Shown: positions 4,606-45,369 of the stretch, piece after piece | Position numbering within the stretch: position 1 is the stretch's first letter | How the letters are laid out: the number at the start of each line of letters is the position of its first letter | IMG/VR virus record: IMGVR_UViG_2880074916_000002 | Coordinates: 3,610 to 67,609 of that record | Origin: a virus | Taxonomy: Duplodnaviria; Caudoviricetes | Length of the DNA: 64,000 nucleotides | Direction: 5' to 3' (one strand) | Translations under genes and position numbers: made by a program | The notes under the pieces: model-generated | The model's database searches: none | What the model saw: only the letters and a program-made list of their open reading frames with translations | Told to the model about the DNA's origin: nothing

Positions 4606-4619
4606 AACCTTACAGGGGG
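4606..4619 (-). promoter_or_regulatory. Recurring late-gene upstream motif, copy before holin
   Basis: Plus strand AACCTTACAGGGGG. Confidence 0.6.
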
Positions 4620-4683
4620 ATAGTTGTATTTTATAAGTTTATGAGATAAAAATTATAAATTATTATTAATTTTCTTAAAATTT

Positions 4684-5232
4684 ATGGCTATAGAAACCAC
4701 ATACTTTGGATTAAACAATTCAGATTTAGCATTTTGGTCAATGATTGGAACATGGTTAGCCTCAATTGCTACTGTGGCTGCTGTAATTTTGTCTCTTTAT
4801 ATTTCAATAAATACTAATAAATTGAAGCTTAAAATTCTAAATAATATTACACATTTTGGAGATATTAGTTCTATTAATTTTGATGATGTATATTTCGGCA
4901 TAGAAGTCATCAATGTTTGTGACCGCACAATTACTGTTGAAAGTATTTATCTTCTCTTACCAAATAAATCGTCACTTGTTTTTCCATATTATGATAGTCC
5001 CTATTCTACTAGGCTCCCAAAAAAAATTGAGCACTCTGAGAAAACTCAGTTCTACATTTCTTATTTAAAAAATGAAAAGGGCATAAAAGACTATTTATTA
5101 ATACTAAAAGATGGTGATTTAGATTTTAAAAAATGGAGATTTGCTGTACGGATATCAACTGGGCAAGTTTTTACATCTAAAATTAATCCTAGAATTATTT
5201 CAAAACTAGAAGAATTAAAAGAAGCACCCTAA
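4684..5232 (+). CDS. Moron-like hypothetical protein with N-terminal transmembrane helix
   Basis: AT-rich, opposite to late genes; FWSMIGTWLASIATVAAVILSLYI. Confidence 0.75.
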   Translation: MAIETTYFGLNNSDLAFWSMIGTWLASIATVAAVILSLYISINTNKLKLKILNNITHFGDISSINFDDVYFGIEVINVCDRTITVESIYLLLPNKSSLVFPYYDSPYSTRLPKKIEHSEKTQFYISYLKNEKGIKDYLLILKDGDLDFKKWRFAVRISTGQVFTSKINPRIISKLEELKEAP

Positions 5233-5246
5233 GGTGCCTCTTTTTT
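5224..5246 (+). terminator. Terminator between convergent genes
   Basis: GCACC-CTAA-GGTGC then CTC-T6. Confidence 0.5.
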
Positions 5247-8200
5247 ACTCTCCAAAAGCAAAATTACCAGCACTCCGTGCATCTTGACGATTTCGTGACA
5301 AATAAATGCCATCTTCCGCGCGATCTATGCGACGCTGTCTATTTTTATAACTTTGATTTAAGTTCATTCGTGTGATTCTTCGAGATGGATTTTTATCATT
5401 GAATCCTTGAATTTCTGTCCAGATTTCATCCATCTCTTGTTGGTCATCCATCATTTTCGCTCGTGTCCACAAAGTCATTAACCGACCACGACGAGCGTTC
5501 AATTTTTTATCAAGTTGATAAATTGCTGATTTACCTTCATTAGCTGTACGAACATCTGATGGAGAAAAACCCATTCCTTGGACAAGCAAGTCCATTGAAT
5601 TTACTTCGTCCATAATGGATACACCTGTTTTATCCTGCACACCTTCTTCGCCATAGCGATAAGTTTTAGCAAAGTTTTTCAAGAAAACAGGTAACATCGT
5701 TTCCAGACCACGTAAATTATGACCTTCTGAAATTTCTTGTGTACCTTTTGCCACATTAAGTCCAATGCCAGCAACAGGTCCCAATGCTCCAGACATTGCC
5801 GATTCAGCCCACTTTTTACCTTCTAAACCTTCTTGTACATCTGGCAATAACATATTGTTGATTCCAACACGTCCAGATAAATCTATAGGGGTTAATGCGC
5901 GTGGCGCACCTTTCATTAAAAGATTGGAAATTGTAGGATTAAATGCTTCAGCTAAATAGTTTCGTAATGCAATTTCTGCATCCCATGGATCATCATCATC
6001 TCCACCAGCCCATGAAACAACTGACAATAACATTCCCACCAATGGCAAACCTAAAACACCAGCGAAAGTAGCATGCATTGCTAGAATTGCAGCAAGAGAT
6101 TTACGAGCTTCATTGCGCTCTGCATCAGTTTCACCTTTTATAGATTGATAGGTTTGTCGTGCAAGTGTATAAACCATGTTCTGACCAAACTGTTTGAACA
6201 ACAATAAAACCTTAGCCACGTTACCTTGCATGATGCGAGGACGGTTGCCAGAACTATAATCAAAATGTCCTTTGTATGTAGCATCAACAGCTTGATCGAA
6301 AGCCAAATCGTGATTTACTCCAGCTTGACGAGCCAAACGGTATGAAGCAATAAATGTTACTTCACGGTTGAAACGTTCTGCATTATGAAACAATACACTT
6401 GCTGCTCGCATAATTGGACGTGTTTTCCACATAATTCCACTATCTTCGCCTTGTGCGATTCCAGCTAAATCATGTGCTTGTGTTACATCAATAACACCAC
6501 GAGCTACAGCTTCATCATAAGCCTGCTTTTCATCCTTACTTAAAAATTTGGAAATATCCGCACTCATTGTTTTATAAAGATCAGTTTTGCTACCTTCCCA
6601 TTTCACTTTATGAAAATCTACACCCTTTCTAAAATCATTTGATGCTTTAAGTAATTCCTTTCCAGCTTTATCAAATCCCCATCGCGCACCCATAATTGGA
6701 TATGCAACCAAAGCGGTTTGAGATAAGTTGACCATAGCAGCTGCTGGTGATAGACCTAAATAATAAATAAAGCCAAGACTGGTTAATGAGCTTGAAAGTG
6801 GATGACCTTTGGGATTCATTAGGTTTTCATGGCGTTTATTCATTTCATCAATAACACTTTGTGCAGCCGACTGGTTGTAACGATGATCCTGTTTGATTTG
6901 CTCATCAGAATACTTTTGCATAGCATCTAGTTGGTCAGCAAGCTGATCGCCATAACGTAATTTAGCGAGATAATTTGCTCCACTAAACATATTCTGTGCA
7001 TATGCTCGACGAGCATCTTGGCTAAAACCAGCAGTACCTTTACGGTGAATTCCATGTTTCGCCCAACTTAAATCAGGCATTGAAGATAAATAAAGCTGAT
7101 TTAATGTGTCTTCAAAGGCTGCTTGTTCCGCTGTAGATAAACCAAGATTATCAACTTCGGCAAAAAGATTGGACATGAAGCCACGCCCCACGGCATCTCT
7201 TGAAGATCGAAATTCTTTATCTTGAATGACAGGATCAATTTTCCATTGAGGAAATTTCTTCATCATTTCCAAGCGTATTTTTTGCGCTTCACCCATAGTT
7301 TCTGCACGACTAACGCTCTCAACTTGCCCTGTAGTATTTCTAGATACAACTACATATTTCCCGAACCGTGCTAAAGGAAAGTACACACCTTTCACGTAAC
7401 CGTAAAATTGCTGATCCATCTGTTTGATTAAATCAGCTTTCTTTTGGCTCGATAGAGAAGCACGTAAAATTCGCTCTTTTATTGCAAATTGAACTTTGGC
7501 ATAGTGCTTTTTATATGAATCACGTGCTTTGATATACATTGCTTGAGTCTCTGGTGATAAGGAATTAAAGTCAGCTCGGAGTTGCTGATATTTAATTTTA
7601 TTGTCACCAGGTACATATGGTTTTGCTGGATCAATCATTGCTAAGGTTGCGTCATGCATCAAGTCAGCAAGTTGATTTTCATCTTTTAGGTTCGCCCATT
7701 CTCTAACAATTTCATCTGCTTCGGCACCCGCATCGTTTTTATCAGCATCCATTTGAGCAGCAAGTTCATTATATTTATTGAGCTGGGGTAAAAGTTTAGA
7801 ATAAATCTCGGTCAGCTGGCGACGACCTAAAGTTGATAAGCCAATACCTAACCAATCTGTAAATTTATAAGCAGTTTTATCTTTGATTGATTTTACTGAA
7901 ATATTTTTTAGGTTTTTACTCAGATTATCTATGGACTCTTTAGCCGAGCGACTAAACCGAATATCTGCACTCTCACTATTGAACGTCCCAGTATTGCCCT
8001 CAGCCATTTTTACTTGATTTGGCTCTAATGCAACAATGAATTCCTGATTATCAAAATGATGTACTACACCTTGATATTTCCCTGAACTTGTTGCCTCTAC
8101 AATCTTGTCGCGTGAAATATTTTCAGTGGTTTTAAAAGCATTGCGAATATTTACAAATAAAGGCAATACAAAGCCATTATTACCCCGAATATTTGCATAC

Positions 8201-11200: not shown

Positions 11201-13122
11201 TTTTCAGTGCTTGAAATAGTATTTTCTATTGGATTTGGATTATTTTCTCTTAAAACAGATTTAATATCATTGCTTTCGCTCGGTTGTGTTTTTGGAATAA
11301 CAGACTTGTTCCCAGTGGTGTTGAGTGCAGGTATATTTTTCCTTGCTTGAATGTCTGCTGTAACTTCACTATTTTCTGAAACTGCTTGTTCAATTTTTGT
11401 TGTTGCTCCAACTGGAGATTCATTATTTGTGGATTGATTTGCCCCACTAACGCCTGATTGAGCAGTTCCTGATTTGGAAATGCCATCATTTTCTGATGCT
11501 GTAACAGTATTTGTGCTTTGGTCTGAGGGGGAATCATTGAAAGTACTTGATTTGTATTCATTTGCAGATTGATCATATCCTGTGAAAATTGGTGCAGAGT
11601 TTTCATTGTTGCTTCCTAATAACGATTGATAGTTTGATGGCACAGCATTATTTAGAGACTCATTGTCATTACGTTGTAAGTTGCTTGCCACTTCATTTGA
11701 TGCATTTAGAGTTGGTGTAATACCACTATCCACTGCCAAAGCTGCAGCAGTAGACATAGGTCCATCATTGGGATTAATTCCCATTTGTTCCGATGGTTTT
11801 GGCTGTGTTGGAAACACATAATCAGACACTGATCCTGTTTCTATTTCTGTTGTATTTAAAGCAGGATGTTCATAATTGATGGTATTTCCGTGATCAACTC
11901 GTTCTGGTTGAAATTCACCTAATGCCCATGAGTCTGAGGCAGGTGCAGGCGGTTCAAAATTTACTTGGTTATCATATGCTTGTTGTTGTGGTACTTCGGT
12001 CTGTTTAGACTGATCAACATCAGTTGGAGTAAAGTCAAGTCCGTTATCATATTGAATTTGCGATTCATTTTGTTGTTCATTAGCTATACGATCTGCTTCT
12101 ACTTGCTGTTCCTGAACTATCGCATTTTGTTGCTCATTATACGCCTTATTATTTTGATGATAATTTACTGGTGCAGAGACAGTATTCATGCCTCCACCCA
12201 TTGCCATGCCTGCAAGTGTGCCCATCACAATAGCGGAATCTAAGCCTTCATCTAGTGGTTTGCCTAACGCATAATTTTGTAAGAGTTGTTCAGATACTGA
12301 CTGCGGTAATTCTTCAAGTAAACCTTCTGTCAGTGCACCACCAATAATTGATTTTGGGATGGTTGAAAGTGGCATTTTTTGGATTGAATCACCTACAAGC
12401 TGTGAATTCAAATGCCCTGAAGCCATAGCAGTTTCTAAGTCATCAAACCCTAATTTTCTTACAACTTGACCGCCAGCCAAACCAAATAGTGAACCCAAAG
12501 CACCAGTCGCTATTGAAAGACCTGATTGTTCAGGTGTAAGCAATTTATCATTTGTATCATAGCGAATATTTTCAGCTTGTTGCCCTGCCATGACAGCGCC
12601 CTCGCCGATTGCACCTGCGGCAATAGGTTTAATAGCTTTGCTTGCCATACCAAGCCCACGACCCACTGCACCACCAGCCAACATAGATGGAGCTGATTCA
12701 ACGACTGTATTGAAAATCATAGATGGGTTAGATAAAGCGACTTTACCTTTTTCAATGACTTTTCCTACAAGTGAGTCTTCGTTTTGCCCCGCCTCGCTGA
12801 ATTGTTTTTGTTGTTCTTTATATTGGTCTGTATGCAAATCATTAAGTGCATCTTGAGTTTGCTTGAACTGAATGGGTGTATTTTCTTCTATAAATTTACC
12901 AACTTGACCACCAGTAGGTATATCTGCGAGTCCAACCAAAGTTTCGGGTACAGCAACTACGCCTTTAAGTAAGGAGACGCCAGCGTCTTGAGCATGACCG
13001 AGAAAGCCTTTTTCTTGTTGTTTTTCTCCATCCAAGCTACCAACAAATGGCTTAAGTGCTGTTGATTGATCTTTATTATTATCTAGTTGCCCTGAAAATG
13101 GCTTTAAAATTTGCTCAGACAT
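5245..13122 (-). CDS. Giant polyvalent virion/ejection protein (PLxRFG-type, 2625 aa)
   Basis: Inorganic-PPase-like block (GNYKKGH...HYGYI...ADNEHIDTY), two HExxGH-type metallopeptidase blocks, ART-PolyVal-like block (VVYHGT...GIYLT...EFIVALEPNQVK), YFPLARFG motif. Confidence 0.8.
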   Translation of the reverse strand: MSEQILKPFSGQLDNNKDQSTALKPFVGSLDGEKQQEKGFLGHAQDAGVSLLKGVVAVPETLVGLADIPTGGQVGKFIEENTPIQFKQTQDALNDLHTDQYKEQQKQFSEAGQNEDSLVGKVIEKGKVALSNPSMIFNTVVESAPSMLAGGAVGRGLGMASKAIKPIAAGAIGEGAVMAGQQAENIRYDTNDKLLTPEQSGLSIATGALGSLFGLAGGQVVRKLGFDDLETAMASGHLNSQLVGDSIQKMPLSTIPKSIIGGALTEGLLEELPQSVSEQLLQNYALGKPLDEGLDSAIVMGTLAGMAMGGGMNTVSAPVNYHQNNKAYNEQQNAIVQEQQVEADRIANEQQNESQIQYDNGLDFTPTDVDQSKQTEVPQQQAYDNQVNFEPPAPASDSWALGEFQPERVDHGNTINYEHPALNTTEIETGSVSDYVFPTQPKPSEQMGINPNDGPMSTAAALAVDSGITPTLNASNEVASNLQRNDNESLNNAVPSNYQSLLGSNNENSAPIFTGYDQSANEYKSSTFNDSPSDQSTNTVTASENDGISKSGTAQSGVSGANQSTNNESPVGATTKIEQAVSENSEVTADIQARKNIPALNTTGNKSVIPKTQPSESNDIKSVLRENNPNPIENTISSTENSNLNGQNDIDQTQTNNITDQISQLEQQLSEAKTVSEKAKLRKQINQLKSQQAETDTISQNIPVTPDQIQTQYGDTPESVMSDVELLGDDFTIDLRDDKKKTNALNNPNYNAVQKPDGSVEIIGMKHPTTGEWVGKKPNAVSIDENAHQAATSFQNNTPEPTQAQIEAGNYKKGHIKVQGLDISIENPKGSERRGTDPNGKAWAHAMSDHYGYIKRTKGADNEHIDTYIGHNPDSNQVFIVDQIDQASGNFDEHKVMLGFNNQEEAITAYKSNFDKGWKVGPIRNMDMGQFKDWLKNGDTSKPSSPQNLKESIENIRAEKIRQKTINDLHSGVYGKATDEQLQESLKHLNKEIAKAQKQSENEVVNGKRSTRKAVASGALDRFLKNRVDLETYIKARKNGEIKQRNDGTNDYSRNKLKPDEDRKGTSPLDTTFNALSIVSATRRVLSILEHLKLPTAQDTSSSDRIVVGNYRVSGFSVQIISSFADLPKVIQNDATYQDENGKTQNYDVSGVWHDGTLYVVADQVYGDSSKQLTTFDAYEELLVHEIIGRLGVQKLFGQEYKTKFQQLFNALGGMKGIRKIAQDNGVDMQQFESAYVQPYTQGVKDEIYTESDVQQALVSELFAFVAQNAKSKPFVRQKLKEVLGYIRQWFRDRGFDKFLSRYNDADLMMFLAEARKAVVDQKYFGKFKDQKIANNKNDSDQPLYSRSRENSTGINVQQVRDVLVDRFGKDTINELERQGKLEIIQDYQVDGVEGFYYNGKAVLVASNLTKESAVPTFLHELGGHAGFQNMMNQKQYQGLMSQFDKLVEQGNPVAMAAKVLAEREQGKNRQQLEYLPYLLTLSSTMQQRNVIQRNALQKLINNIVSFVKAWAFDKFGINLNLNPDDILVLSERMVNQLKEQSSLDAVRQKYHGTSQWMTAPNGAKTQLSEQQWLQVRTPEFKKWFGDWENDAKNASQVLDENGEPKVVYHGTASEFNEFKQGHGILGDGIYLTDSFDTADMYANIRGNNGFVLPLFVNIRNAFKTTENISRDKIVEATSSGKYQGVVHHFDNQEFIVALEPNQVKMAEGNTGTFNSESADIRFSRSAKESIDNLSKNLKNISVKSIKDKTAYKFTDWLGIGLSTLGRRQLTEIYSKLLPQLNKYNELAAQMDADKNDAGAEADEIVREWANLKDENQLADLMHDATLAMIDPAKPYVPGDNKIKYQQLRADFNSLSPETQAMYIKARDSYKKHYAKVQFAIKERILRASLSSQKKADLIKQMDQQFYGYVKGVYFPLARFGKYVVVSRNTTGQVESVSRAETMGEAQKIRLEMMKKFPQWKIDPVIQDKEFRSSRDAVGRGFMSNLFAEVDNLGLSTAEQAAFEDTLNQLYLSSMPDLSWAKHGIHRKGTAGFSQDARRAYAQNMFSGANYLAKLRYGDQLADQLDAMQKYSDEQIKQDHRYNQSAAQSVIDEMNKRHENLMNPKGHPLSSSLTSLGFIYYLGLSPAAAMVNLSQTALVAYPIMGARWGFDKAGKELLKASNDFRKGVDFHKVKWEGSKTDLYKTMSADISKFLSKDEKQAYDEAVARGVIDVTQAHDLAGIAQGEDSGIMWKTRPIMRAASVLFHNAERFNREVTFIASYRLARQAGVNHDLAFDQAVDATYKGHFDYSSGNRPRIMQGNVAKVLLLFKQFGQNMVYTLARQTYQSIKGETDAERNEARKSLAAILAMHATFAGVLGLPLVGMLLSVVSWAGGDDDDPWDAEIALRNYLAEAFNPTISNLLMKGAPRALTPIDLSGRVGINNMLLPDVQEGLEGKKWAESAMSGALGPVAGIGLNVAKGTQEISEGHNLRGLETMLPVFLKNFAKTYRYGEEGVQDKTGVSIMDEVNSMDLLVQGMGFSPSDVRTANEGKSAIYQLDKKLNARRGRLMTLWTRAKMMDDQQEMDEIWTEIQGFNDKNPSRRITRMNLNQSYKNRQRRIDRAEDGIYLSRNRQDARSAGNFAFGE

Positions 13123-13175
13123 GACACACTCCTAAAGATATGCGTCTATCATGATTTTTATATATAAAATGGTCT

Positions 13176-13189
13176 AACCTTAGAGGGGG
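13176..13189 (-). promoter_or_regulatory. Recurring late motif, copy before the giant gene
   Basis: Plus strand AACCTTAGAGGGGG. Confidence 0.6.
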
Positions 13190-13193
13190 CAAT

Positions 13194-13220
13194 AAAAAAC
13201 CACCCGAGGGTGGCTTCTTT
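13194..13220 (-). terminator. Terminator after the HEPN gene
   Basis: A6-CCACCC-GA-GGGTGG on plus strand, U-tract on minus. Confidence 0.75.
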
Positions 13221-13626: not shown

Positions 13627-13627
13627 T

Positions 13628-14484: not shown

Positions 14485-16455
14485 TTAACCATTTACGAAT
14501 CTATTTCCATTAGCATCTTCATATACTGGCTTACCGTTGCTAGTACCTACCTGTTTCACCATATTAGGAGGTAGTCCTTGTGATTGAGCACTATCTATTC
14601 TCTGACCTGTTTGGTTATTAATCAGAACATCGGCATTTTTGATAATATTTCCTTTTTCATCAATAGTCTCACCACCATTTATTGCCATCACCCGACTACC
14701 ACCCTGCTGACTTTGTTGCCCTCGCACCATCCCTAATTTTTCAGTTAAAGATTGTCGTTCTTCAGCCGTTTCAGCAGCTTCATACTGTTTAAGCAAATTC
14801 AACTCATACGCCTGTTTCATACGTGCAGGCATATTATTGAGCTGTTCTGCGCTAAACTGACGATTAGCTAAGTCATTGCTTGCATTAAATTTCTGTGCAT
14901 CTAAGTTCAAGTTAGCATTTAAACGACTATTTGCACCCTGTTCACCCAATTCAGCGCGGTAGTTTTGTGCAGACTGCCCCATTGCTTCACGCTGAATTGT
15001 TGCATCATTATTAGCATCAGTTTTATAAACATCATTTGCACGGTTCGCATCACCTTGATTCATATCAGACAAAGTACGAATTTGGTTGGCGGTTAGCCCC
15101 CTTGCACCTTTAATAGGGGTGCTTGCTGCGCGTATGATTTCTTGACGTTCAGCTTCTTGTTCTACTGTTCGTTGTGGTATCTGTGCTCGTCGTTCAATAT
15201 TTCCATAACCCTGCATGCCCAGATTCATTTCAGGCGTTCTAGCCATAAAGTCCTTAATGCCCTGAACGCCAACACCTTTTTGTACACCTGAACTTTGAAG
15301 TTCAGGTACGCCATTTGCTCGCGCTTGAGCTGCTGCATTAGGGTTTGCATAACTAAAAGCGTTGCCCTTTTGCTGGATTGCATAAGGGTTTGCTTGAGGC
15401 TGTGTATTAGTTTGTGCTGAACCTAAATTAAATGGATCAGCTTTAGGTGCTTGCGTAGCGGTATTAGCTGTATTGACTGAAGTTTTTACATCGGTAGTAG
15501 CTAAAGGTGATGGGACAGCATTAGATTTTAAAGGCTGTGTTACAGTTGCAACAGTTTTGTTTGCGGTTAGAGCTGGTTGAGATGTGCTCGTTGGTGTTTC
15601 TGTTTGTGTGCTAGGTGAGCGAGCAAACGCTTGACGTATCCCGAGTTTTGCTTGCTTTAATCCATCTCCAGCAAAGTCTAAAGATGGACCAACAATATTA
15701 CCACTATCTGAATTGTCACCATCAGCCACCCAACTGGCTAAACCTCTTACACCTTCTGCTAAGCCACCCATCAAACCGCCTGCTGCACCAACTCCAGCTT
15801 TACCTAATCCTGTTGCAGTATTCATTAACCCGCCAACAGCATTCCACGAGCCGTCATCATGTTCGGGTGCAATCATATTCTTAGCAAAAGCACCAAAACC
15901 CGATGTTTGAGGAGTTGATGGCTGTGCTTGATTTGTAGGAATTTGTGGTCTTGATTGTGAAACAATAGATTTAGGTTGAGTTGATATTGCTTGCCCGGTT
16001 TGTAATGTTGATGATTTACTTATATCAGCGATAGATTTGTTGGATGTATAACGTGACATATTCTCAGCAAAAGTTTGTGGTGCAGCTTTTTGCTTTAGCC
16101 ATTCGTTACCTACTTCTCCACCATTCGCAAAATACATCTCAGGTTTTTGTCCAGGCTTAAAACCCAATTGAGGTTGATCTACTGGTGTATGAGTCTGATC
16201 TTTCATAGCATCAAGTGCTTGCACACCCACCGAATGAACTTGGTCAGGTGACATTTGGAACTCACCGTTACTGAGATTGACTGGCGTGGGATTCCCCATA
16301 TTTTTTAAATTATTGGTACCAATCTGCTGAGTAGAATCAGCAGGCATAATATAACTACCTGCTGGAACATTTTTTTTAACATCATCAGAAGTGCCCGTAC
16401 CTGCACCTTGAATCAGTCCACTTTCATCTTTTGAGCGTTTTTTTAAGCCGTACAT
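14485..16455 (-). CDS. Putative internal virion (ejection) protein, 656 aa
   Basis: GAGTGTSDD...YIMPAD and LSNGEFQMSP motifs; Q/A-rich low complexity; position next to the giant protein. Confidence 0.6.
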   Translation of the reverse strand: MYGLKKRSKDESGLIQGAGTGTSDDVKKNVPAGSYIMPADSTQQIGTNNLKNMGNPTPVNLSNGEFQMSPDQVHSVGVQALDAMKDQTHTPVDQPQLGFKPGQKPEMYFANGGEVGNEWLKQKAAPQTFAENMSRYTSNKSIADISKSSTLQTGQAISTQPKSIVSQSRPQIPTNQAQPSTPQTSGFGAFAKNMIAPEHDDGSWNAVGGLMNTATGLGKAGVGAAGGLMGGLAEGVRGLASWVADGDNSDSGNIVGPSLDFAGDGLKQAKLGIRQAFARSPSTQTETPTSTSQPALTANKTVATVTQPLKSNAVPSPLATTDVKTSVNTANTATQAPKADPFNLGSAQTNTQPQANPYAIQQKGNAFSYANPNAAAQARANGVPELQSSGVQKGVGVQGIKDFMARTPEMNLGMQGYGNIERRAQIPQRTVEQEAERQEIIRAASTPIKGARGLTANQIRTLSDMNQGDANRANDVYKTDANNDATIQREAMGQSAQNYRAELGEQGANSRLNANLNLDAQKFNASNDLANRQFSAEQLNNMPARMKQAYELNLLKQYEAAETAEERQSLTEKLGMVRGQQSQQGGSRVMAINGGETIDEKGNIIKNADVLINNQTGQRIDSAQSQGLPPNMVKQVGTSNGKPVYEDANGNRFVNG

Positions 16456-16511
16456 GATGTTTATCCCATATAAATATCATGTATGGTTGATCAATATAGA
16501 TTGTAAACGTT

Positions 16512-16524
16512 AGCCTTATAGGGG
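16512..16524 (-). promoter_or_regulatory. Recurring late motif, copy before the 656-aa gene
   Basis: Plus strand AGCCTTATAGGGG. Confidence 0.6.
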
Positions 16525-16530
16525 AGTAAT

Positions 16531-16558
16531 AAAAAAACCACTTAAAAGTGGTTTTTTT
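16531..16558. terminator. Bidirectional terminator
   Basis: AAAAAAACCAC-TTAAAA-GTGGTTTTTTT. Confidence 0.8.
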
Positions 16559-16565
16559 ATTACTC

Positions 16566-16805
16566 TTAATATTTTATATAGTTTGTTAATTTATTGATAA
16601 ATTCAGCATTAGGTTTTCTTCCCGTTTCTTTAATCATTTCACGAAACATCATACTTTCAAGTGGGTGATTAATCACAAAACCTGATGACTTTTTAGGTGC
16701 TTGTTGATCTCGTAACTTCTTTGGAGTAATACCCTCTAATGACTGGATAAGCATTTGATCAACATATTGATTATTTAAATATAAATTTTCGAATTTATTT
16801 ATCAT
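16566..16805 (-). CDS. Small hypothetical protein coupled to the protease gene
   Basis: 79 aa, ATGA overlap with the upstream stop. Confidence 0.55.
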   Translation of the reverse strand: MINKFENLYLNNQYVDQMLIQSLEGITPKKLRDQQAPKKSSGFVINHPLESMMFREMIKETGRKPNAEFINKLTNYIKY

Positions 16806-17587
16806 ATCATATAGCCCCTGCAGTGAATAAAAATGTGCTTTTCTTCTTTTGCCATATAATCTCTTAAATTAGAAAAATAATTTGAGAGATGATCACCTAG
16901 ATTGTTTATTGTATCAATATCATCAATTAATAATTTTAGTTGATTTGTTAAGACATCTTTGGATAGACCTCGTCCATGTGAATGCCATATTCTGTTATTG
17001 CATAATTGTGTTGCAACTTCAACAGCTCTTTCCTCTTTTTCTTCTATGGTAACTATATCACCTGAAGTTTTATGATTTGTCCAGTTTTTAAATTTATAAG
17101 TTGAAAGCCACTGCTTAAGTAAATCAATAGACAATTCTTTAGCTTGTTCAAACCATTGAAGTTCAGCTAAATCAAGTTTTTCAAGTAAGACAATATCTGC
17201 CGTTGTTAAGGTCCCATTGGTTGAAGCTAATTTTAATTTTTCATATTGATCTAAATAAGCTAAAACTGGGATCATTTTCCCATCTTTTTCTAACTGAGGA
17301 TCAATAGGACCTAGAACAGAATAATAGCTCATAAGAATTCTATCACCTGACATGACAAATATAGTCCCAGCTGACATAGCTCTATCAGGAACAATAAAGG
17401 TAATATGAGAATAATGATGACGAATAATATTCACCATTCTTTCAACAACCTCTACAACACCCCCTCCAGTATCCAAAATAACAGCCAATTGTTGTTGCTT
17501 GTTATCAATTGATTCAACTGCACCTTTAACAAAATTTTCTAAACCATTAAAAATTGGCGCAACAATTGTTAATACATCAGTTGGTAT

Positions 17588-18869
17588 AGAGATGGATCCG
17601 TAAATTTGAACAACTCCTATAAGTGATATTCTGCTCCTCAAATGATGTTATAAACATCAATATATGGAGTATTTTATGGCACGTAGACCAAGAAGAAATC
17701 ATTCAAATGATTTTAAAGCTAAGGTAGCACTTGCTGCGATTAAAGCAGAAAAAACACTTGCTGAATTGAGTGCTGAATTTGATGTTCATCAAAACCAAAT
17801 TATCGACTGGAAAAATCAACTGATTTCAGCTTCCTCGCAAGCTTTCGATCAATCAAAAGCTCCAACAGAACCACCCATCGATCTAAAAAAACTACATGCA
17901 AAAATCGGTGAGCAGGCATTAGAAATTGATTTTTTAGAAGGTGTGTTGAAGAAACTGGGCCGCTTCAACCACAAAAGTTAATCGATGACTCACTTCAGAT
18001 TTCAGTATCTAAGCAAGCTCAGCTGCTGAAAGTCTCCCGTGGTTGTTATTACTATCGCCCAAAACCTGTGAGTGCATCAGATCTGAAGCTGATGCGCTGT
18101 ATTGATGAATTACATATGCAATACCCTTTTGCAGGTAGCCGTATGATGCGTGATTTGTTGAATCGTCAAGGACATCATATAGGACGACGTCATACACGTA
18201 CTTTAATGAAGAAAATGGGCATTAATGCGTTATATTGCAAACCAAATTTAAGCCAGGCTAATCAAGCTCACCGTAAATATCCATATCTGCTCAAAGGGTT
18301 GGCTATTCAGCGCAGTAATCAAGTGTGGTCTACGGATATAACGTATATCCCTATGGCAAAAGGCTTTGTTTATTTATGTGCTGTGATTGATTGGCATAGC
18401 CGCAAGGTACTTGCGCATAGGGTATCGATTAGTATGGAGGTGGATTTTTGTATTTCGGCTTTAAATGAAGCGATTGAAAAATATGGTCGACCTGAAATAT
18501 TTAATACAGACCAAGGCAGCCAGTTTACCAGTGATGCATTTATTGATGTATTGAAATCAAATGGCATTCAAATCAGTATGGATGGTAAAGGTCGATGGGT
18601 AGATAATGTGATGGTTGAACGATTATGGCGGAGCGTTAAATATGAAGAGGTGTATCTCAAAGCTTATAGCAGTGTCACAGATGCGAAAAAGCAATTAAGT
18701 GCATATTTTGAGTTTTATAATTTGAAACGACCTCATTCGAGTCTAGACAAAATGACACCAAATGAGTTTTACTATGATCAGCTACCCCAACAAAACAAGG
18801 TGGCTTAACTAGAGCGGAATATCACTTATAAATACGCTTTTAGTTGTTCAAACAAGTGGGACCACCTCT
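17588..18869 (+). mobile_element. IS3-family element, 1282 bp (ISAba14-like from memory; unverified)
   Basis: Ends AGAGATGGATCC / GGGACCACCTCT; 4-bp TSD GTAT at 17584-17587 and 18870-18873. Confidence 0.92.
17676..18808 (+). CDS. IS3 transposase OrfA/OrfB, -1 frameshift at AAAAG near 17973
   Basis: OrfA HTH MARRPRRNH; OrfB WSTDITY, FNTDQGSQF, ERLWRSVKYE. Confidence 0.92.
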
Positions 18870-19092
18870 GTATACCTGTATCTAACTCTAAACAAGTCGA
18901 GATTTCTTGTAAGTTATTTTCAAAAACATTATTTGTAACTTGATTTAAAATATAAGTTAACGACATAGATATGTAACATAATAAAATAAATACGAATTTA
19001 ACTTAATAAATTCAATTAAGCTACAGTTATTAGAATGATTTTAGACTAGATACAAACTATTCATAATTAAATCTTAAATCAATCTTAGCAGT

Positions 19093-19103
19093 AGCTTACA
19101 GGG
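19093..19103 (-). promoter_or_regulatory. Degenerate copy of the late motif right after the stop of the 834-aa gene
   Basis: Plus strand AGCTTACAGGG. Confidence 0.4.
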
Positions 19104-21609
19104 TTAGTACGAGTAATTGTGACTTGTGCTGGTACTTTCAGAAACACTACCACCAATCGAAGCCCCAGCACTGATACCAGCAGATACATGCATCGCCGAC
19201 ATTGCACCTGCAGCCAATTGAGATGAAAACTGCCCCACTGCTTTGGCTGCTTCTAATGCAAGCTGTGCTTTTTGTATCGCATTTTGCATCTTGGCTTCAT
19301 GCTCTTTTAACTGCATTTCTGAAAATGCAATATTGGTACGAACATTCATATCTGCGTACCTTGCTTTCGTTTCAGCATTTGCAATCTGAGTACGAAGTAG
19401 CATGTCATTATATCGTGACTGAGTTTCTGCAAATGCAATATTAGTTCGGCTGTTCATATCAGCATAACGTGCTTGCATCTCAGCATTTGAAATAGAAACT
19501 CGTGACTTAGATTCAATATAACGGTTATAAACATCTGCATTCGCAATCGTCGTTCTTAAACTTAGGTCTGCATAACGTGAGTGTGCTTCTGATACCGCAA
19601 TCGCTGTACGTGATTTCATATCAGCAAACCTAGCCAATGACTCACTATTGGCAATACCAACACGCATACGCATTTCAGCAAACTTGGCTTGTGCATCTGC
19701 AAATGAGATTTTAGTCCGTGATATTGAGTCAATAACGCTTGCTTGAGTATTTACTCTGGATGTTTCAACGTCGGCTTGTGCTTTAAATAACTCTACTTGT
19801 GAATTAAATGCTGATGTATTACTTTGAACAACACCCATTTTTGCATCAATTTCCGCCTTGTACGCTTCAATATTTGCTTGATATTCAGATATTTTCACAC
19901 GTGCAGCTTCGAGGTTGAGTTCAATCTGTTTAGATTTAACATTGGCTTTAGCAGATACGCCATCTACAGTTGCTGCATACATACGAGCAAGCGATTCATA
20001 CATGGATGCCTTGGAAGTTTCAGCCTTAATTTGGGAATCATATGCTTCGACTTTAAGCTTTTCAGCTCCAATCTGTTCAGAATATGCTTGAACCTCTGAT
20101 TTATATGCATCAAATTTAGTCGCAATCAATCCAGCTCGTGCAGTCGCACCTTGAACCAATGCTTTATATACCTCAACATTGGTCATAACCGCTTCAATTT
20201 TAGCTTTAAAAACATCAACTTTTTGTTGGTTGAGTTGCCCAATAACTGCCTGTGCATCAAGCATTGCCTTGTAAGCTGAAATGCGTGAAATAGTTGCTTC
20301 GATCTTGGTTTTATAAACACTTATTAGACTTTCAAATGCAGAATTTTGCGCATTAAAAATACTAATCTGTGCATTTAGTACACTGATTTTACTATCAATT
20401 TGAAACTTAACCAGTTCCATTGTATTTGAAACATAAGCAAGCCACATGTCTTGCTTCATTTTTTCCAAAGCCATACCTTGCTCAGTCAGGAAACGGATAT
20501 GCTCAAGTTGTTTATCAAAAGACTGAATTAAAATGTCACGGTTTAGATCCGCAATCGCAAGTTTGCCTTGATCACGAATGTCGCTAACCTGTTTTGCCAA
20601 CATCCCTTGTGGCATTGAAAAACCACGACTTGCCCACTCGGTAACAGCTTCTTGTACGGCTCGTTCAGTTTCTCGACTGGTACGTTCTCTAGCCCGATTA
20701 AATAACGATTGCTCAACTGCAGCAGGTAAACCAAGTCCTGCATGACTTCCATCTAACCATGCACGGATTTCCAACACCAAAGGCTTAATCGCACTCTCAG
20801 TATTGAAAGCATAATAATCTTGCTTTACAACCGTGCTCGCTTCAGAAATCAAAGCATCGATATTGTCAGGGATCGTAATATTAAATTCAGGTGGTTTCCC
20901 CTCAAATACAGGAATTTCTTCATATTTGAAATTAGGAAGTTCAATTTTCTCCATCACTTCCATTTCTGGAATCACAATGCTTGGTGCACTAGGCATTTCA
21001 ATGTCATCGTTTATTTCAGGTCGTAATGGAACTGAGATGACATCCATGCTTGGTGCAGTAGGTAGATTTAAAATTGGTGCTTCTGGTGTTGCAGGTAATT
21101 CCAGATCGCTTAAATCTATATCTTTGATTAAGTCATTTAAATTTATTTTGTCTGGTAAGGTACCTGCATCAAAATTTTGCACATCAAAAGTTGGTGCTGT
21201 AGGTAAGCTAATTGCTGTATCAAATTCAGGGATTGTTGACGCAGCAATAAAATCAGGTGTAGATAAATCCTCTGAAAAAATAGGCGCCTCAGGAATATCA
21301 ATATTTAAACCTGAAAACTCAGGGCTCACCATTTCTTTAGGCTGCTGAATATCAAGATCGATAACAGGCGGTACAGGACGCTCAATATTCAATTCAGGTG
21401 CAGTTAAACCTTTAAGTGGCTCCAAAACCTGATTCACTTGGCTTTGCTAAATTAGATGGAGGTGTAATATCTGCAACAGAGATTTCGGTGAGATTACCCA
21501 AAGCTTGAGATACATCACTTGCATACCCATTCACTTTACGCTCAAAATAATCGAGTTTTTCAGTGACTTCTTTTGTCACAATATCAATTTGAGGGACTGT
21601 AACTGTCAT
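19104..21609 (-). pseudogene. Large coiled-coil virion protein (about 834 aa) split by a +1 frameshift near 21423
   Basis: GGAG-ATG at 21609 (MTVTVPQ) stops at 21412; removing one nt at GGTTTTGGAGCC joins it to the 777-aa frame (ESGFEPLKGL); 2506 nt = 835 codons + 1. Confidence 0.75.
19287..19718 (-). repeat. Eight tandem 18-aa (54-bp) protein repeats
   Basis: RTKISFADAQAKFAEMRM, RVGIANSESLARFADMKS, RTAIAVSEAHSRYADLSL ... RTNIAFSEMQLKEHEAKM. Confidence 0.9.
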
Positions 21610-21610: not shown

Positions 21611-22951
21611 TTAAACTCTCCGTTTGGTACTTGTAATATCAATATTCAAATCATTGATATAACCATGTTCACCCGATATTTTGATTTCAAATGCAAAGTG
21701 TCGACCACGTAAACCACGCCCAAATAAAACACGGCCATTGGTTAAGTAATCTGCTTTCTCTGTAGGCAATAAATAATAATAGGTCTGCTTTGTGCCACTT
21801 TGCGTCGTGCTCACACCAACTTCCAACTTTCTGGAATTTCCAGATAGTTCATATTCAAGATAAGCACCCAGTGGATGAACTAACTGTCCCTGCCCCAAAT
21901 CCAATTGTCCTGTGGCTAATTTTGCTTCAATGAGCTCTTTAGCATCCAGTTGATACACCCCATCTTCAGCAACGCCATAGAGCACACCATCAATGACAAC
22001 TAATTCGCTAAAACCATAATCCTGATAACGGCTCATAGCCCATGTATCAACATTTGCCGTCCATGCAGACCCATATTGCTTTTCTTTTGCATGATCATCT
22101 TCAATAAAAACAAGGTCAGTAATTAATTGCTTGGCAATATGTTTGCCTTGATTTATATCTGATGAGATCAAGTTCTCATGAATGATTTGTTTTGACTTAC
22201 GTTGTTGTTGTGATGTTTCAACAATACGAATGGTATCAATGACACGTTGTTTTGTTGTTATACGCTGATGATATTGTTCTGAATATCCAATATGATCCAC
22301 AACAAAATCAGAATATCGGGCAACACAACTGCCTTGAGCTTTTACTGTTTCTGAGATAACTGAGTGTGCTAACTTTTTATGTTGATAATTTTCGTGATAA
22401 ACAATGCTTTCGTGTGTATATGCTCTTAATTTTAGATTTGATTGAGAATCTACAATATTGAAATATTCCTGAATCGAATCTTTAAAGCGTGCAATAGCCT
22501 TAAAGTTTCCTTTCACTTTTAAAACTTCATTTAATTGAGTGACGCTATATTTTTTATGATGAACTTGCTCGCCTATCCGCACCTGTTCGATATTTAAATT
22601 ACGAAGTTTATCTGTTTGCGTTGTAGTTGAGCTAATCTCATCTTGAATTAAAGACTTTGCACGTAAGCGTGTTTTGAATTGATCTGAAACAACGATTTGA
22701 TCAGTAATGAAATCTTTATGGCGCTTACGACCTGTAAACTCATCAAATACCTTCACAGCATCGCGGACTGGATAAATAGCAGAGTCTACAAATTGATCCA
22801 AAACAAAAACTTTATCAGCACTCAGTACCTTCAAACGATACAGTGAATCCTCTCGGATTCTGATTAACTCTTCAGTGACAGCTTTAGATTTACCTATCGT
22901 ATTATTGGAGTATGCAATCGTTTCCTGAATATCATCTCGATATAAAGTCAT
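21611..22951 (-). CDS. Putative virion/tail protein with short N-terminal repeats
   Basis: 446 aa, ATGA-coupled in the late operon; (D/E)x-hydrophobic-x-hydrophobic-x(D/E) every 18-20 aa. Confidence 0.65.
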   Translation of the reverse strand: MTLYRDDIQETIAYSNNTIGKSKAVTEELIRIREDSLYRLKVLSADKVFVLDQFVDSAIYPVRDAVKVFDEFTGRKRHKDFITDQIVVSDQFKTRLRAKSLIQDEISSTTTQTDKLRNLNIEQVRIGEQVHHKKYSVTQLNEVLKVKGNFKAIARFKDSIQEYFNIVDSQSNLKLRAYTHESIVYHENYQHKKLAHSVISETVKAQGSCVARYSDFVVDHIGYSEQYHQRITTKQRVIDTIRIVETSQQQRKSKQIIHENLISSDINQGKHIAKQLITDLVFIEDDHAKEKQYGSAWTANVDTWAMSRYQDYGFSELVVIDGVLYGVAEDGVYQLDAKELIEAKLATGQLDLGQGQLVHPLGAYLEYELSGNSRKLEVGVSTTQSGTKQTYYYLLPTEKADYLTNGRVLFGRGLRGRHFAFEIKISGEHGYINDLNIDITSTKRRV

Positions 22952-25398
22952 TCGTTAATTACTCCAATAAAATGATATGCAGACCTATTATCAACTAAAC
23001 TTGTATAACCCCATTTGTATCGACGGTTATACTGGTCTATTTCAGATATGTTGGCATATTCACTATCACCAAAGACAACCCTACAGGCATCTCTGTAAAA
23101 GACACCAACATATTGATCTGGTGAAGGTAAAAAATACGTAGTCGCAGGGATTACATCTATTTTTCTAGGGACTTCATCAATCGTGATATAAATATTCCCT
23201 GTGGTTTTTCCATTTTCACGCCAACTTTTTGAATAGGTTTGTACCTTTGGAGCACCACCACCGCCAGAATGCTGCCAAGTGTGCTTATCTGGATGTACAA
23301 GCCAAGTGATGTCATATGGCAATCCATTCAACCAATCTCCTTGATCAGCAAAGTCAGAACAACCACCTGGATCATAGTTATAACCCATGACCCATACGGG
23401 GTTACCATCTTTAGGATAGGGTTCAGCTTTGTTCGCTGTGTACATATTTCCTGCAACAGAACCACCTTTCCATGCCCAAACAAAATCATAAGTGAAATAA
23501 CGGTAAGAGTTCGGATCACGTACAGAATGAAGGCTCAACCCTTCAGTTTTATAAATACCTGATATATATTCTGAAACAGCATATAGCGATGCATTTCTAC
23601 ACAAAAAGGGAATACAAACTGCGATCGCCAATGAACGATTCTCACTTTTTGTAGATTCTGTTTTGTGAGTGAAATAACGATTCCTCCAAATTGAACCCAC
23701 TTGGGAGAAAAAATCATCAAAAGAAAATACAGGTTTGGAATCAAAACCTCGATCCTCCCCTTTTATTTTGGTAACTATTTGCGTTGGTGCAAATTCATTA
23801 CGAAGATCAAAGTCAGTGGTGTAGAAATTTCCCCAAACAGATATTTGCCCCTCATAAGCAGTTTCAGTCCATGATCCGACAGTCATGCATTCTTCAAAGT
23901 CGTTTTCTACATCTGAGGTATATTTTCTTTGATCAAGGAAATACTTGACGACTTTCAAGCTATCTCCAATGTAATACCCATACATAATCGTGTCACAACG
24001 AACAATCATACCTGCTGGAATTTTGGATTTATCCAAAACAGAAAAATCGAATGAAATACAGCCTTGCATTTCAACAGATGGAAATTTAATTTCTGCACCC
24101 GATGGAAACAGATAGCCTTGACCCACTCGACTGACATGACCTGATAAAACAGCAATTGGATCAAGCTCTAAATTATCCCAATAATCAACGTCAGTCGAAG
24201 TTACACCCAATGGATTATATAAACTCGTCAATGCCTGCTGATAAATATCTTCTTGCGGAACACGACGTAACTTGTACAAAATCGCATTGGACTTATCATC
24301 CTTACCCAATAGTGCGAATAACTTACTCAGATATTTAGAAATTGCTGTGCGGTATTCTTCTTTAACATCAATTGCTTTTAACCAACCATCATCCTTTGCA
24401 CTACCAAAACTCAGTTTTAATTTATAAGCCTTACCAACGGCTATCCCATCTTCATCATAGTTATAGCAAGTGTTAAAACCCTCTGTACCATTCAGGTTAA
24501 AACTCCACCCACATACCATGCTGTATGCAGTATTGGAATAAAAATCAGACGTATCACCTACCTTAATGATGACACCTGCTCTACGCCAAGATTCAAACCC
24601 GCTCCCTTTAGGAAATGCTTCACCACTTGGCATACCACCAAACCGATCAAGTATATTTAAAATTTCTTGATCACCAACCTGCTCAATATATGCTCTAAAG
24701 GCTTCTGTTGTTGTGGTTGGAATTAAAGGCAAGGGCATTGCATAAATGCCACTCGAACTTATACGAGTCAGCCAAGGTTTATTTGAGCTATCAAAAGTTA
24801 CCCCATGTGTTTGATTAAACTTATAATTATATTGAAACTCACCATCTATTGATGGAATACCACTGTATCCAGGTAAACGAACACCATAAAGTTCTTCTGA
24901 GATTTGGTCTATGTACTCTGGCGGTATATTAAATTGTTTCTGATCATAAGTTTTATCAGGTAAATCTTTGAGGTTTAATTTCCCATATCCACCTACAATT
25001 TGCATGACCTCGGCCATCGCACCGCTATACCATGTTGGGCGTTGTTGACTATATTGTGTTGTTACAATGTCACTGATCATGGCGGATTTCGGATAAAACT
25101 CAGGAACAACTGACATATTGGGTTCAATTGTGAACCGTTGTAACTTTAAATTTTTATTGGGTAAATCATTATTTTTATAATCACTTAAACGCTGACGACA
25201 TTGCTCAGTTAGTTTTATGCCCACACCTTCATTCGGTAACACTCTTGCTTTAGTAATTACACCACTAAACAGCATTGGCACATACAGTTTTGCCAAGCCA
25301 TCATGTTCAAATGCATATGGATCAAGTTCTTTATGGGCGATGGCTTTAAGAATCCCAGCCATGTCTTGCAATATGACATAACCACCATCAGGCAAATC

Positions 25399-34727: not shown

Positions 34728-34788
34728 CTTTGTGCATGCTTAAATAAATTGAATAAAGTTATTATGATAAAAACCCCTGAAAAGAATG

Positions 34789-34801
34789 AGCCTTACAGGG
34801 G
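34789..34801 (-). promoter_or_regulatory. Recurring late motif, copy before the CsrA-like gene
   Basis: Plus strand AGCCTTACAGGGG; CATAAT 22 nt downstream on minus. Confidence 0.6.
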
Positions 34802-36406: not shown

Positions 36407-36443
36407 AAAAAAGGCGATGCAAGCCCAAAACACTCACACCGCC
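36407..36443 (-). terminator. Terminator after the 158-aa gene
   Basis: Minus strand GGCGGTGTGAG...CTTGCATCGCC followed by U6. Confidence 0.55.
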
Positions 36444-38298: not shown

Positions 38299-38319
38299 GT
38301 TGACTCTCCACAATTTAAA

Positions 38320-39447: not shown

Positions 39448-39462
39448 AGCCTTACAGGGGGG
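39448..39462 (-). promoter_or_regulatory. Recurring late motif, copy before the scaffold gene
   Basis: Plus strand AGCCTTACAGGGGGG. Confidence 0.6.
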
Positions 39463-39466
39463 AAAT

Positions 39467-39491
39467 AAAAAACCACCCGAAGGTGGTTTTT
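39467..39491. terminator. Bidirectional terminator
   Basis: AAAAAACCACC-CGAA-GGTGGTTTTT. Confidence 0.8.
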
Positions 39492-39513
39492 ATATTATTC
39501 AAATTAAATTTGA

Positions 39514-39801: not shown

Positions 39802-39975
39802 TGATATAACTCCATTCGTTTAAAAGGTAAATTCTTTTCCATATTTTTATAATTGTACTGAACTTTAACTTTTCAACCCAATGTTGTGAAAAAAAACAAT
39901 TAATTTGATTACCTTATGCTTTCACATCAGTGGAATTTAACTGCAAGTGAACGATTTAAATTGGTTTAAATGAAT

Positions 39976-40005
39976 AAAAAGGACAGCAAAATGGCTGTCC
40001 TTTTT
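39976..40005. terminator. Bidirectional terminator
   Basis: AAAAAGGACAGC-AAAATG-GCTGTCCTTTTT. Confidence 0.8.
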
Positions 40006-40033
40006 ATAAATAATAATGAAAAATTTCTTTACT

Positions 40034-40546: not shown

Positions 40547-40578
40547 ATTCCCCCTAAACTTTATATAAAATAAATATA

Positions 40579-42870: not shown

Positions 42871-42881
42871 ATTCAAAATCC

Positions 42882-44549: not shown

Positions 44550-44637
44550 TTTTCACCCCATTTTGCACAATATTTATGCATTATTGAAGTGTGTACGTGC
44601 ATAGAATTAAATTGATGGGGGTGTTTAGTCGCTCTAT

Positions 44638-45303
44638 TCACGTAGATGCTCCATATTCAGGATCATCCGCAATTGGTTTGAATGCAGAGCTATTACCTGT
44701 ACTAATTCTTTCGAGTAAAGAAGTTAATGCATCAACAGGTTTATTGTTCTCATCATCAAGTCCAAACGCCTGACGTTCTAATCCGATTAGAGTTTTGAGT
44801 GTGTCACTAAGTTTTTTCATTGAATCAACACGACCAGGCATAGAAATGATCTTTTGATAAATGTCATTTAATTTATCTATGCCTCTATCATCTGGTTTGT
44901 ACATCAGATCACCAAGACGAATCAGCAAATCAACTTGATCTTCACCAACCATCTGCTCCAACTCATCAAAAAGACTCATTGCAATCTTGCGTGAACGTTG
45001 AATATCCTTTCTTTGAGATAAGCGAACACCTGCAGTTAGGTTTGCATTTGCGTCGATGGTTTCTTTTTCTGAAATATGGTTTGCAGTGCGAACTTCAGCG
45101 CGAACCTGTTCCTTGCGAACCAAGTCATCTGCTTTTGCTTTGATTTTTGCTGATAGATCTCGAACCCAATCGTCACGCTTTGCACGTTTTCTGATTGCTG
45201 TGTCTGATACACCTTGCTCAGAAGCAATTTCACGAAGTGACTTTACGCCTGCACGATATTCAAGCTCGATCTTTTCCCAATCAATTACTTTCTTTTCAGT
45301 CAT
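44638..45303 (-). CDS. terS: Terminase small subunit
   Basis: N-terminal HTH (IDWEKIELEYRAG..SLREIA...IRKRAKRDDW); upstream of terL. Confidence 0.75.
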   Translation of the reverse strand: MTEKKVIDWEKIELEYRAGVKSLREIASEQGVSDTAIRKRAKRDDWVRDLSAKIKAKADDLVRKEQVRAEVRTANHISEKETIDANANLTAGVRLSQRKDIQRSRKIAMSLFDELEQMVGEDQVDLLIRLGDLMYKPDDRGIDKLNDIYQKIISMPGRVDSMKKLSDTLKTLIGLERQAFGLDDENNKPVDALTSLLERISTGNSSAFKPIADDPEYGAST

Positions 45304-45356
45304 ATCACCCAACCTTCTTGATATGACATAATTGAATAAAATAGTTGTACTCGTCT

Positions 45357-45369
45357 AACCTTACAGGGG
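45357..45369 (-). promoter_or_regulatory. Recurring late motif, copy before terS
   Basis: Plus strand AACCTTACAGGGG. Confidence 0.6.

Follow-up and report, generated by a model that had tools for sequence, protein, structure and literature searches.

A recurring 13-nt box marks the late transcription units of an F116-like phage and points to a winged-helix protein as candidate late activator

Control of late promoters lacking a −35 element by a phage-encoded activator is a textbook principle of phage gene regulation. Under the lambda Q/PR′ plan, a single constitutive promoter is combined with a read-through terminator. In phage Mu, four late promoters possess a −10 but no −35 element, and the activator C occupies a 16-bp site centered at −43.5 (PMC2582627). 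RinA, ArpU and LtrC are small phage DNA-binding activators encoded just upstream of terS, where they act on the terS promoter (PMC3152322). Here, we analyze the late region of a single 67,609-bp virus contig, the IMG/VR record IMGVR_UViG_2880074916_000002 (37% guanine plus cytosine (GC) content), of which bases 3610–67609 constitute the 64,000-nt stretch examined, called the window below. Six copies of a 13-nt element precede its late genes; we regard these as probable activator boxes of late promoters, with a 154-amino-acid (aa) winged-helix protein encoded in the same window as the most likely activator.

The genes for packaging, head, tail, ejection and lysis occupy the minus strand, beginning at ~45.3 kb and extending down to ~2 kb. 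On this gene strand, the recurring element is the 13-mer CCCCTNTAAGGYT. Read from the other side, CCTTANAGGGG occurs exactly six times, always on the plus strand (4608, 13178, 16514, 34791, 39450 and 45359), against a chance expectation of 0.01 copies; six copies were obtained in 0 of 100 shuffles, and the rest of the contig outside the window holds no further copy. One-mismatch copies of the 13-mer were not found, and the four two-mismatch copies on the minus strand are all intragenic. All six boxes are intergenic, share the orientation of the genes and stand 57–130 nt upstream of minus-strand genes. A preliminary description of this DNA, made from the letters alone, had noted a same-orientation intergenic motif in six copies, each in front of a late minus-strand gene; the counts bear this out, and the six genes concerned are listed in Table 1. 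Its proposal of a CCT-N3-AGG dyad as the core does not survive comparison with related phages, where the dyad is not conserved. The element is asymmetric, with a 3′ half, TARGGYT, that is kept and a 5′ half that varies.

The seventh, degenerate copy listed in the same description is also real. It follows a 777-aa protein with the C-terminus ...SHNYSY, and the intact copy at 24357 of the Pseudomonas stutzeri phage 8P, its syntenic counterpart, follows the same C-terminus and stands upstream of a 652-aa gene. In our window, an insertion sequence (IS)-type element and a Clp-like protease moron (16566–19000) now lie between the degenerate box and the 656-aa gene, which has an intact box at 16524. 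Because this insertion separates it from the gene, the degenerate box is probably a relic. At another site, that of the CsrA-like gene (34774–34801), the start of the box, CCCCTG, recurs inverted 16 nt downstream as CAGGGG, followed by TTTTTAT; this inverted repeat forms a weak terminator-like hairpin that takes in half of the box.

Protein similarity groups the phage with Pseudomonas phage F116 (Hollowayvirus), phage 8P and Shewanella phage Y11. F116-like temperate phages include generalized transducers of Pseudomonas aeruginosa and are common prophages of Acinetobacter, Shewanella and Comamonadaceae. The record itself, called a prophage in the preliminary description, represents a phage contig and not a prophage set in host DNA; in Acinetobacter genomes, relatives do occur in integrated form, and these prophages are its closest relatives. 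With megablast, the late region found no match in the phage collection, the relatives being detectable at the protein level only.

Exact 10-mer recurrence proved to be coding-sequence noise in the GC-rich relatives and was replaced by inspection of the gap upstream of terS together with a composite pattern. In the three isolated phages Y11, F116 and 8P, the 11-mer core is present on the gene strand only. Across these phages and approximately 30 Acinetobacter prophage loci, the box sits at syntenic gaps, namely before terS, the scaffold gene, the CsrA-like gene, the homologue of the 656-aa protein gene and the holin gene, and it is conserved despite a GC range of 37–64%. The approximately 30 Acinetobacter-type prophage and IMG/VR loci, which were retrieved through the winged-helix protein, contain 70 box copies. 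Every copy is on the gene strand and lies downstream of the winged-helix gene, while the 10 kb of early DNA upstream of that gene contains none.

Restriction of the box to phage DNA was also observed in bacterial genomes. Five Acinetobacter genomes of 3.5–4.4 Mb carry four to six copies each, of which three to five cluster on one strand of one contig (four to five copies over ~30–45 kb in four genomes, three within ~18 kb in the fifth), leaving zero to one copy per genome outside the prophage cluster. The motif is thus not equally common genome-wide in these hosts; equal frequency was among the outcomes that the preliminary description had named as refuting a late regulon. Its near-absence from host chromosomes argues against a host regulon. 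The pattern TARGGYT-N21–24-NANNNT was too noisy in AT-rich and mid-GC genomes to serve as a genome-wide negative control.

Alignment anchored on the box, with 17 sites first and then 37 non-redundant sites, uncovered a second conserved part. A hexamer NANNNT starts at offset 22 after the 13-mer in 23 of the 37 sites and at offset 23 in the other 14; the terS site of F116, counted at offset 23, is better read as GACAAT at 21, which leaves 36 of 37 at 22–23. Other offsets account for at most four NANNNT starts each, with the single exception of offset 66 (seven). Within the hexamer, A at the second position is found in 37/37 and T at the sixth in 36/37 sites, the consensus being (G/A)A(C)A(C/A)T, and the signal is clear even at 63–64% GC (with GACACT, AACACT and AAGACT among the hexamers seen). 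At the predicted +1, seven bases past the hexamer, 21 sites have A and 13 have C, and no site has G. With the hexamer placed at −12 to −7, the box spans −47/−48 to −35/−36 relative to the predicted start, with its center at approximately −41.5. Positions 14–19, where a −35 hexamer would be expected, carry at most 0.36 bits, and a sigma-70 consensus scan found no promoter at any of the six window sites. From this anatomy, we infer promoter activity and the start sites. The preliminary description had considered the −10 spacing inconsistent; the corrected value of 22–23 nt strengthens its idea of activator-dependent late promoters. None of the host sigma-32, sigma-54, sigma-E and sigma-28 consensus sequences, compared by eye, fits the sites. 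If CCCCT is read as a −10 in the sigma-32 manner, no −35 partner is available, since conservation is lacking upstream of the box. As a separate observation in GC-rich relatives, the hexamer is found within the loop of a short, perfect palindrome that a leaderless ATG follows directly (F116, 22755–22775; 8P, 24385–24400; locus L052, 10705–10725), with examples such as CCCGGA-CAAT-TCCGGG and CCGGAAG-A-CTTCCGG.

Strong intrinsic terminators adjoin half of the window's boxes: boxes 2, 4 and 5 begin 3–5 nt past a terminator T-run, and transcription must therefore restart there. Further terminators lie beside inserted accessory genes (40000–39981, 14475–14458 and 5244–5217). Late transcription is thus cut and restarted at several points, the opposite of what a processive antiterminator needs. 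A terminator-like hairpin at 36413–36443 on the minus strand follows the gene after that for the major head protein, has no box after it and is probably a partial terminator setting the ratio of head protein to downstream protein.

The candidate activator is encoded last among the conserved genes of the early rightward operon (minus strand), which runs from a replication protein through a DnaC-like loader and a DUF1064 resolvase-like gene to the 154-aa winged-helix protein. A tblastn comparison of all window open reading frames (ORFs) with Y11, F116, 8P and ten Comamonadaceae prophage loci showed that, besides structural genes, exactly one early-region protein is kept in all 13, and this is the 154-aa protein. 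The box and terS come immediately after its gene in F116 and the Comamonadaceae prophages; in our phage, the winged-helix gene is separated from the box and terS by an AbiTii-type gene, a terminator and a convergent 326-aa gene. At least 445 homologues were found at E ≤ 0.001, and the listed ones with a source name are called hypothetical or AbiEi-like. The structure model (mean predicted local distance difference test score 84.6) has a winged helix at residues 1–67, three β-strands at 73–95 and a long helix at 97–152. Fold searches relate the winged helix to the DNA-binding domains of IdeR, DtxR, MarR and IclR (Z about 10) and returned only such generic winged-helix domains, with nothing specific for the remainder of the protein; a sequence-based profile search of solved structures gave nothing below E 0.1. 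A Pfam scan (E ≤ 0.01) yielded a sub-threshold AbiEi_4 hit and weak Rio2_N and RepL hits. The AbiEi antitoxin label was rejected: the Pfam AbiEi_4 score is 24.8 bits against a cutoff of 25, that for NCBIfam TAA_AbiEi is 12.2 against 150, and no AbiEii nucleotidyltransferase is adjacent, the next gene being AbiTii-type here and terS in F116 and the Comamonadaceae prophages.

Box and protein vary together, an association that we observed across several groups. Homologues with at least 49% identity, from Acinetobacter, Shewanella and Pseudomonas (group A), go with the box CCCCTNTARGGYT. The Comamonadaceae homologues (36–47%) go with CCAGCATAGGGTT, where CC[AG]G[CT]ATAGGGYT appears before terS and again before the scaffold gene. 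The homologue of Pseudoalteromonas phage Y7 (44%) is accompanied by the box CYAYYGTAAGGTT and that of phage Dartukuta (46%) by CCCCTGTAGGTTT and ACCCTGTAGAGTT. The 3′ half TARGGYT is retained in most groups, Dartukuta excepted, while the 5′ half changes. A spacing of 22 nt is preserved at the Comamonadaceae sites and those of the elements L054 and L056 described below, as well as at two of the three Y7 boxes and one of the Dartukuta sites.

Small integrated Comamonadaceae elements in Giesbergeria and Simplicispira genomes (L056, 9924–10760; L054, 4742–5300) provide a second genomic context shared by box and protein. In both elements, a variant box stands directly before the winged-helix gene itself. 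The winged-helix homologue of these elements has the variant box CCTGTTTAGGGTT plus a hexamer 6 nt before its own ATG, and in L056 iteron-like repeats (GGTTACCA, GGTATCCA and GGTACGCA) follow. No F116-type structural genes were found by tblastn in a comparison that covered, of the two elements, L056. When the two genomes were searched for additional variant boxes, the result was no better than its control. Such elements could be satellites, either responding to a helper's late switch or imitating it.

Start codons in the relatives agree with the predicted starts. In the Comamonadaceae prophages and 8P, the terS ATG lies 6–8 nt past the hexamer, a distance that fits transcription starting at the A of the ATG. 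F116 has an in-frame ATG at 22776, 8 nt past the hexamer and 75 nt upstream of the annotated terS start (22851), which adds 25 codons and a basic N terminus as in the relatives; the true F116 terS start is probably 22776 and leaderless. Judged by sequence, the terS mRNAs of the Comamonadaceae prophages, 8P and F116 would be leaderless, beginning at the A of the ATG. In our window, leaders counted from the predicted starts measure 18–82 nt.

At four of the six window sites, the sequence at or just after the hexamer, upstream of the predicted +1, can pair with the downstream ribosome-binding site and start codon or, at the holin site, forms a terminator (Table 1). Since the 5′ arm of the lysis-site hairpin is the −10 of box 6, only RNA entering from upstream can form this hairpin. 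Pairing that is possible in read-through RNA only makes sense only if starts lie just downstream of the hexamer. Compared with shuffled upstream arms, the fold-back reached P ≤ 0.05 at nine of 37 sites, mostly in the Acinetobacter group. It resembles IS10 and IS50, in which the translation start region is paired with sequence lying ahead of the element's own start and only incoming transcripts are silenced. Differently from these elements, the fold-back here is attached to phage late promoters and amounts to a full terminator at the lysis site; its statistics are moderate and concern mainly the Acinetobacter group.

Table 1 Boxes, predicted promoter parts, terminators and associated features (window coordinates unless a relative is named)
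Feature	Position	Strand	Details
Late box 1	45357–45369	−	CCCCTGTAAGGTT; before terS (phrog_1206); predicted −10 AATTAT 45333–45328; predicted +1 ~45321
Late box 2	39448–39460	−	CCCCTGTAAGGCT; before 336-aa scaffold-position gene and major head protein; predicted −10 GAAACT 39424–39419; predicted +1 ~39412
Late box 3	34789–34801	−	CCCCTGTAAGGCT; before CsrA-like gene (phrog_8397) and tail/ejection genes; predicted −10 CATAAT 34766–34761; predicted +1 ~34754
Late box 4	16512–16524	−	CCCCTATAAGGCT; before 656-aa protein gene; predicted −10 AACCAT 16488–16483; predicted +1 ~16476
Late box 5	13176–13188	−	CCCCTCTAAGGTT; before 2625-aa giant virion protein gene; predicted −10 CATGAT 13153–13148; predicted +1 ~13141
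Late box 6	4606–4618	−	CCCCTGTAAGGTT; before lysis genes (126-aa membrane protein, then endolysin); predicted −10 AAAACT 4583–4578; predicted +1 ~4571
Degenerate box	19093–19105	−	AACCCTGTAAGCT; overlaps stop codon of 777-aa gene
Candidate late activator, 154 aa	47496–47960	−	phrog_8117 (unknown function); last conserved gene of early rightward operon
Intrinsic terminator hairpin	39468–39491	−	T-run ends 5 nt before box 2
Intrinsic terminator, bidirectional	16523–16566	−	Ends directly before box 4
Intrinsic terminator stem	13200–13213	−	T-run ends 5 nt before box 5
terS fold-back	45296–45335	−	−10 region pairs with start codon region; read-through RNA −13.0 kcal/mol, predicted late RNA −2.3
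656-aa fold-back	16450–16490	−	Read-through RNA −13.0 kcal/mol, predicted late RNA −4.1
Giant-protein fold-back	13115–13155	−	Read-through RNA −13.6 kcal/mol, predicted late RNA −2.9
Holin/lysis-site hairpin	4556–4583	−	AAAACTCTAC-N8-GTAGAGTTTT and T-run; full terminator; read-through −27.8 kcal/mol, predicted late RNA −3.6
cI-like repressor	53544–54206	+	Faces cro-like gene
cro-like gene	53221–53433	−	Faces cI-like repressor
Boxes in Shewanella phage Y11 (47% GC)	12887, 24606, 56383		Before 656-aa homologue, lysis, scaffold
Boxes in Pseudomonas phage F116 (63% GC)	22728, 28681, 59202		Before terS, scaffold, holin
Boxes in Pseudomonas phage 8P (64% GC)	63705, 4934, 9837, 24357, 41832		Before terS, scaffold, CsrA-like, 652-aa homologue, holin

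In the model we favor, the host RNA polymerase holoenzyme would use the six late promoters only with the phage activator bound. The 154-aa protein would be produced by the early rightward operon, following the replication genes. We infer its binding to the box and its contact with polymerase: the winged helix would bind the asymmetric box CCCCTNTARGGYT at about −47 to −35 (center ~−41.5), where a conserved −35 hexamer is absent, and would recruit or stabilize polymerase in the manner of a class II activator, compensating for the missing −35. A weak −10 of the form NANA(C/A)T, whose A at −11 and T at −7 are taken as invariant, would lie 22–23 nt past the box, and transcription is predicted to start 7 nt past the hexamer, in most cases at an A. 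The late region would be split by terminators and inserted accessory genes into units for packaging, for the head, for tail and ejection, for the 656-aa protein, for the giant protein and for lysis, each restarting at its box.

Among described systems, Mu has the closest design, with several promoters that lack a −35 (Plys, PI, PP and Pmom with C; the middle promoter Pm with Mor) and an activator site that overlaps the −35 region. Mu C (16.5 kDa) and the protein studied here (~17 kDa) are both small and made earlier in the cascade. The sites differ, in that the box is 13 bp long, asymmetric and centered at approximately −41.5, whereas the Mu C site is a 16-bp imperfect dyad centered at −43.5; unlike in Mu, many of the relatives' sites should give leaderless mRNAs. 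Nor does the 154-aa protein appear to be a Mor/C homologue: the Pfam scan gave no match to that family, and the modeled domain order is reversed, with an N-terminal winged helix and a C-terminal helix as opposed to the N-terminal dimerization domain, β linker and C-terminal helix-turn-helix of Mor and C. RinA, ArpU and LtrC, from temperate phages of Gram-positive bacteria, share with our candidate the position of a small activator gene before terS; they differ in that they serve one promoter rather than six over 41 kb, that the hosts here are Gram-negative and that no sequence relationship was detected, the Pfam and PHROG searches having returned no RinA, ArpU or LtrC match. With the lambda Q/PR′ system it shares the gene position: the gene closes the early rightward operon, past those for replication and recombination and ahead of the late genes. 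In place of lambda's one promoter and read-through terminator, however, this phage has many promoters that follow terminators, lack a −35 and are accompanied by no Q-family domain among the 19 early and moron ORFs scanned. More distant portal relatives (32% identity) include Stx phages, which use Q.

The preliminary description had proposed several activator-dependent promoters in place of a single Q-antiterminated transcript and had recognized no Q gene. Synteny, spacing, the absent −35, the terminators and the rarity in hosts all support the former, and a Pfam scan of 19 early and moron ORFs detected no Q-family domain. One could still suppose that the box is the loading site of a Q-like antiterminator, possibly the winged-helix protein itself, at constitutive promoters controlled by terminator read-through. 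The winged-helix gene does occupy the position of Q in lambdoid phages, and a terminator-like hairpin follows the box at the lysis site. We nevertheless judge this reading very unlikely: the terminators are upstream of the boxes and not downstream, six to seven re-initiation sites would be needless for a terminator-resistant polymerase, the promoters have no −35 and fail the sigma-70 consensus scan, and the lysis-site hairpin begins inside the −10, which leaves the promoter's own RNA unable to form it. Just as improbable in our view is a promoter read by a polymerase specificity factor that the phage encodes or modifies, for instance an alternative sigma factor or a single-subunit polymerase. 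The 13-mer is as highly conserved as typical phage-polymerase promoters, but the promoter has two parts separated by 22–23 non-conserved nucleotides, and the downstream part resembles a sigma-70 −10 (−11A and −7T). Such a spacing is too long for a −35/−10 pair of the sigma-70 family. Such a factor would be favored by the C-terminal domain that the giant virion proteins of this group of phages have in common with N4 gp50, although they are reported to have a methylase-like center in place of the polymerase domain (PMC5217972). The 2625-aa giant protein of our window matches DarB-like and lytic domains only and gave no polymerase match.

A less distant alternative keeps the late promoters as described and lets another phage protein or a host factor read the box, the winged-helix protein then having another role, for instance in repression, as an accessory to replication or packaging, or as a regulator of the antitoxin-like kind. 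Box and protein are linked by association only, some databases label the homologues AbiEi-like, the next gene here is an AbiTii-type abortive-infection gene, and several small early ORFs lack annotation. Even so, no other early protein is conserved across the box-carrying phages, the box variant tracks the phage lineage and not the host, the AbiEi scores fall under the family cutoffs, and in F116 and the Comamonadaceae prophages the gene precedes the box and terS, not a toxin gene; we therefore consider a different reader unlikely, though worth keeping in view. The least probable account, to which we give hardly any weight, denies the box a promoter function and sees in it a packaging, recombination or methylation site or an RNA-level signal. 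One copy adjoins terS, where pac sites often lie, yet six co-oriented copies all stand before transcription units and at a fixed distance from a −10-like hexamer, boxes downstream of terminators would be absent from upstream RNAs, and the terS start codon is at leaderless distance in the relatives.

Several points weigh against activator boxes read by the winged-helix protein. The link between box and protein is one of co-inheritance and position, and phylogeny confounds it because the whole late module is inherited together. An asymmetric box of 10–13 bp is a short target if the protein is a dimer, as its long C-terminal helix suggests, and the T normally present at −12 is missing from the hexamer. 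The fold-back stands out in the Acinetobacter group but is weak overall (mean z −0.74). The negative control consists of one phage only, Vibrio phage douglas (portal 32% identical, not among the 41 winged-helix matches), in which no box was found in the late gaps over 27.4 kb examined.

Between the winged-helix gene and terS, the window carries the inserted AbiTii-domain gene (PF18864; 46520–47431) and the convergent 326-aa gene, which has no family match (45380–46360). Terminators at 46379–46360 on the minus strand and 46396–46422 on the plus strand bracket this insertion. Neither gene had a tblastn match in any compared relative.

The preliminary description suggested an undescribed regulon. 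In the literature searched, we found no description of the box, of the function of the 154-aa protein or of late-gene switching in F116-like phages; the statement extends to that literature only, and the original F116 genome paper might mention the repeat. Searches with the motif strings returned only unrelated primers and sequences, and papers on the phages phiC725A, Y11, VvAW1 and AH14 do not mention such a motif.

No sigma-70-family factor is known to use a 22–23-bp spacing. On a bolder view, which we think has little chance of being right, the winged-helix protein would replace −35 recognition as a phage substitute for sigma region 4, with the 13-mer acting as a phage-specific −35 placed 22–23 bp from a minimal −10; together with leaderless starts and read-through silencing, this would form a self-contained late cassette in hundreds of prophages of Gammaproteobacteria and Betaproteobacteria.

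The favored model of activator boxes and a winged-helix activator is explicit and testable, as it names the box, the spacing, the predicted starts and the candidate activator. If true, it would correct the hypothetical and AbiEi annotations of the activator family as well as the F116 terS start, and it would provide an orthogonal activator–promoter pair with natural specificity variants for Gram-negative hosts. The fold-back, if confined to read-through RNA, would insulate the late genes from early or moron transcription. For the phages themselves, the model, if true, would explain how accessory genes can insert between late units without loss of late expression.

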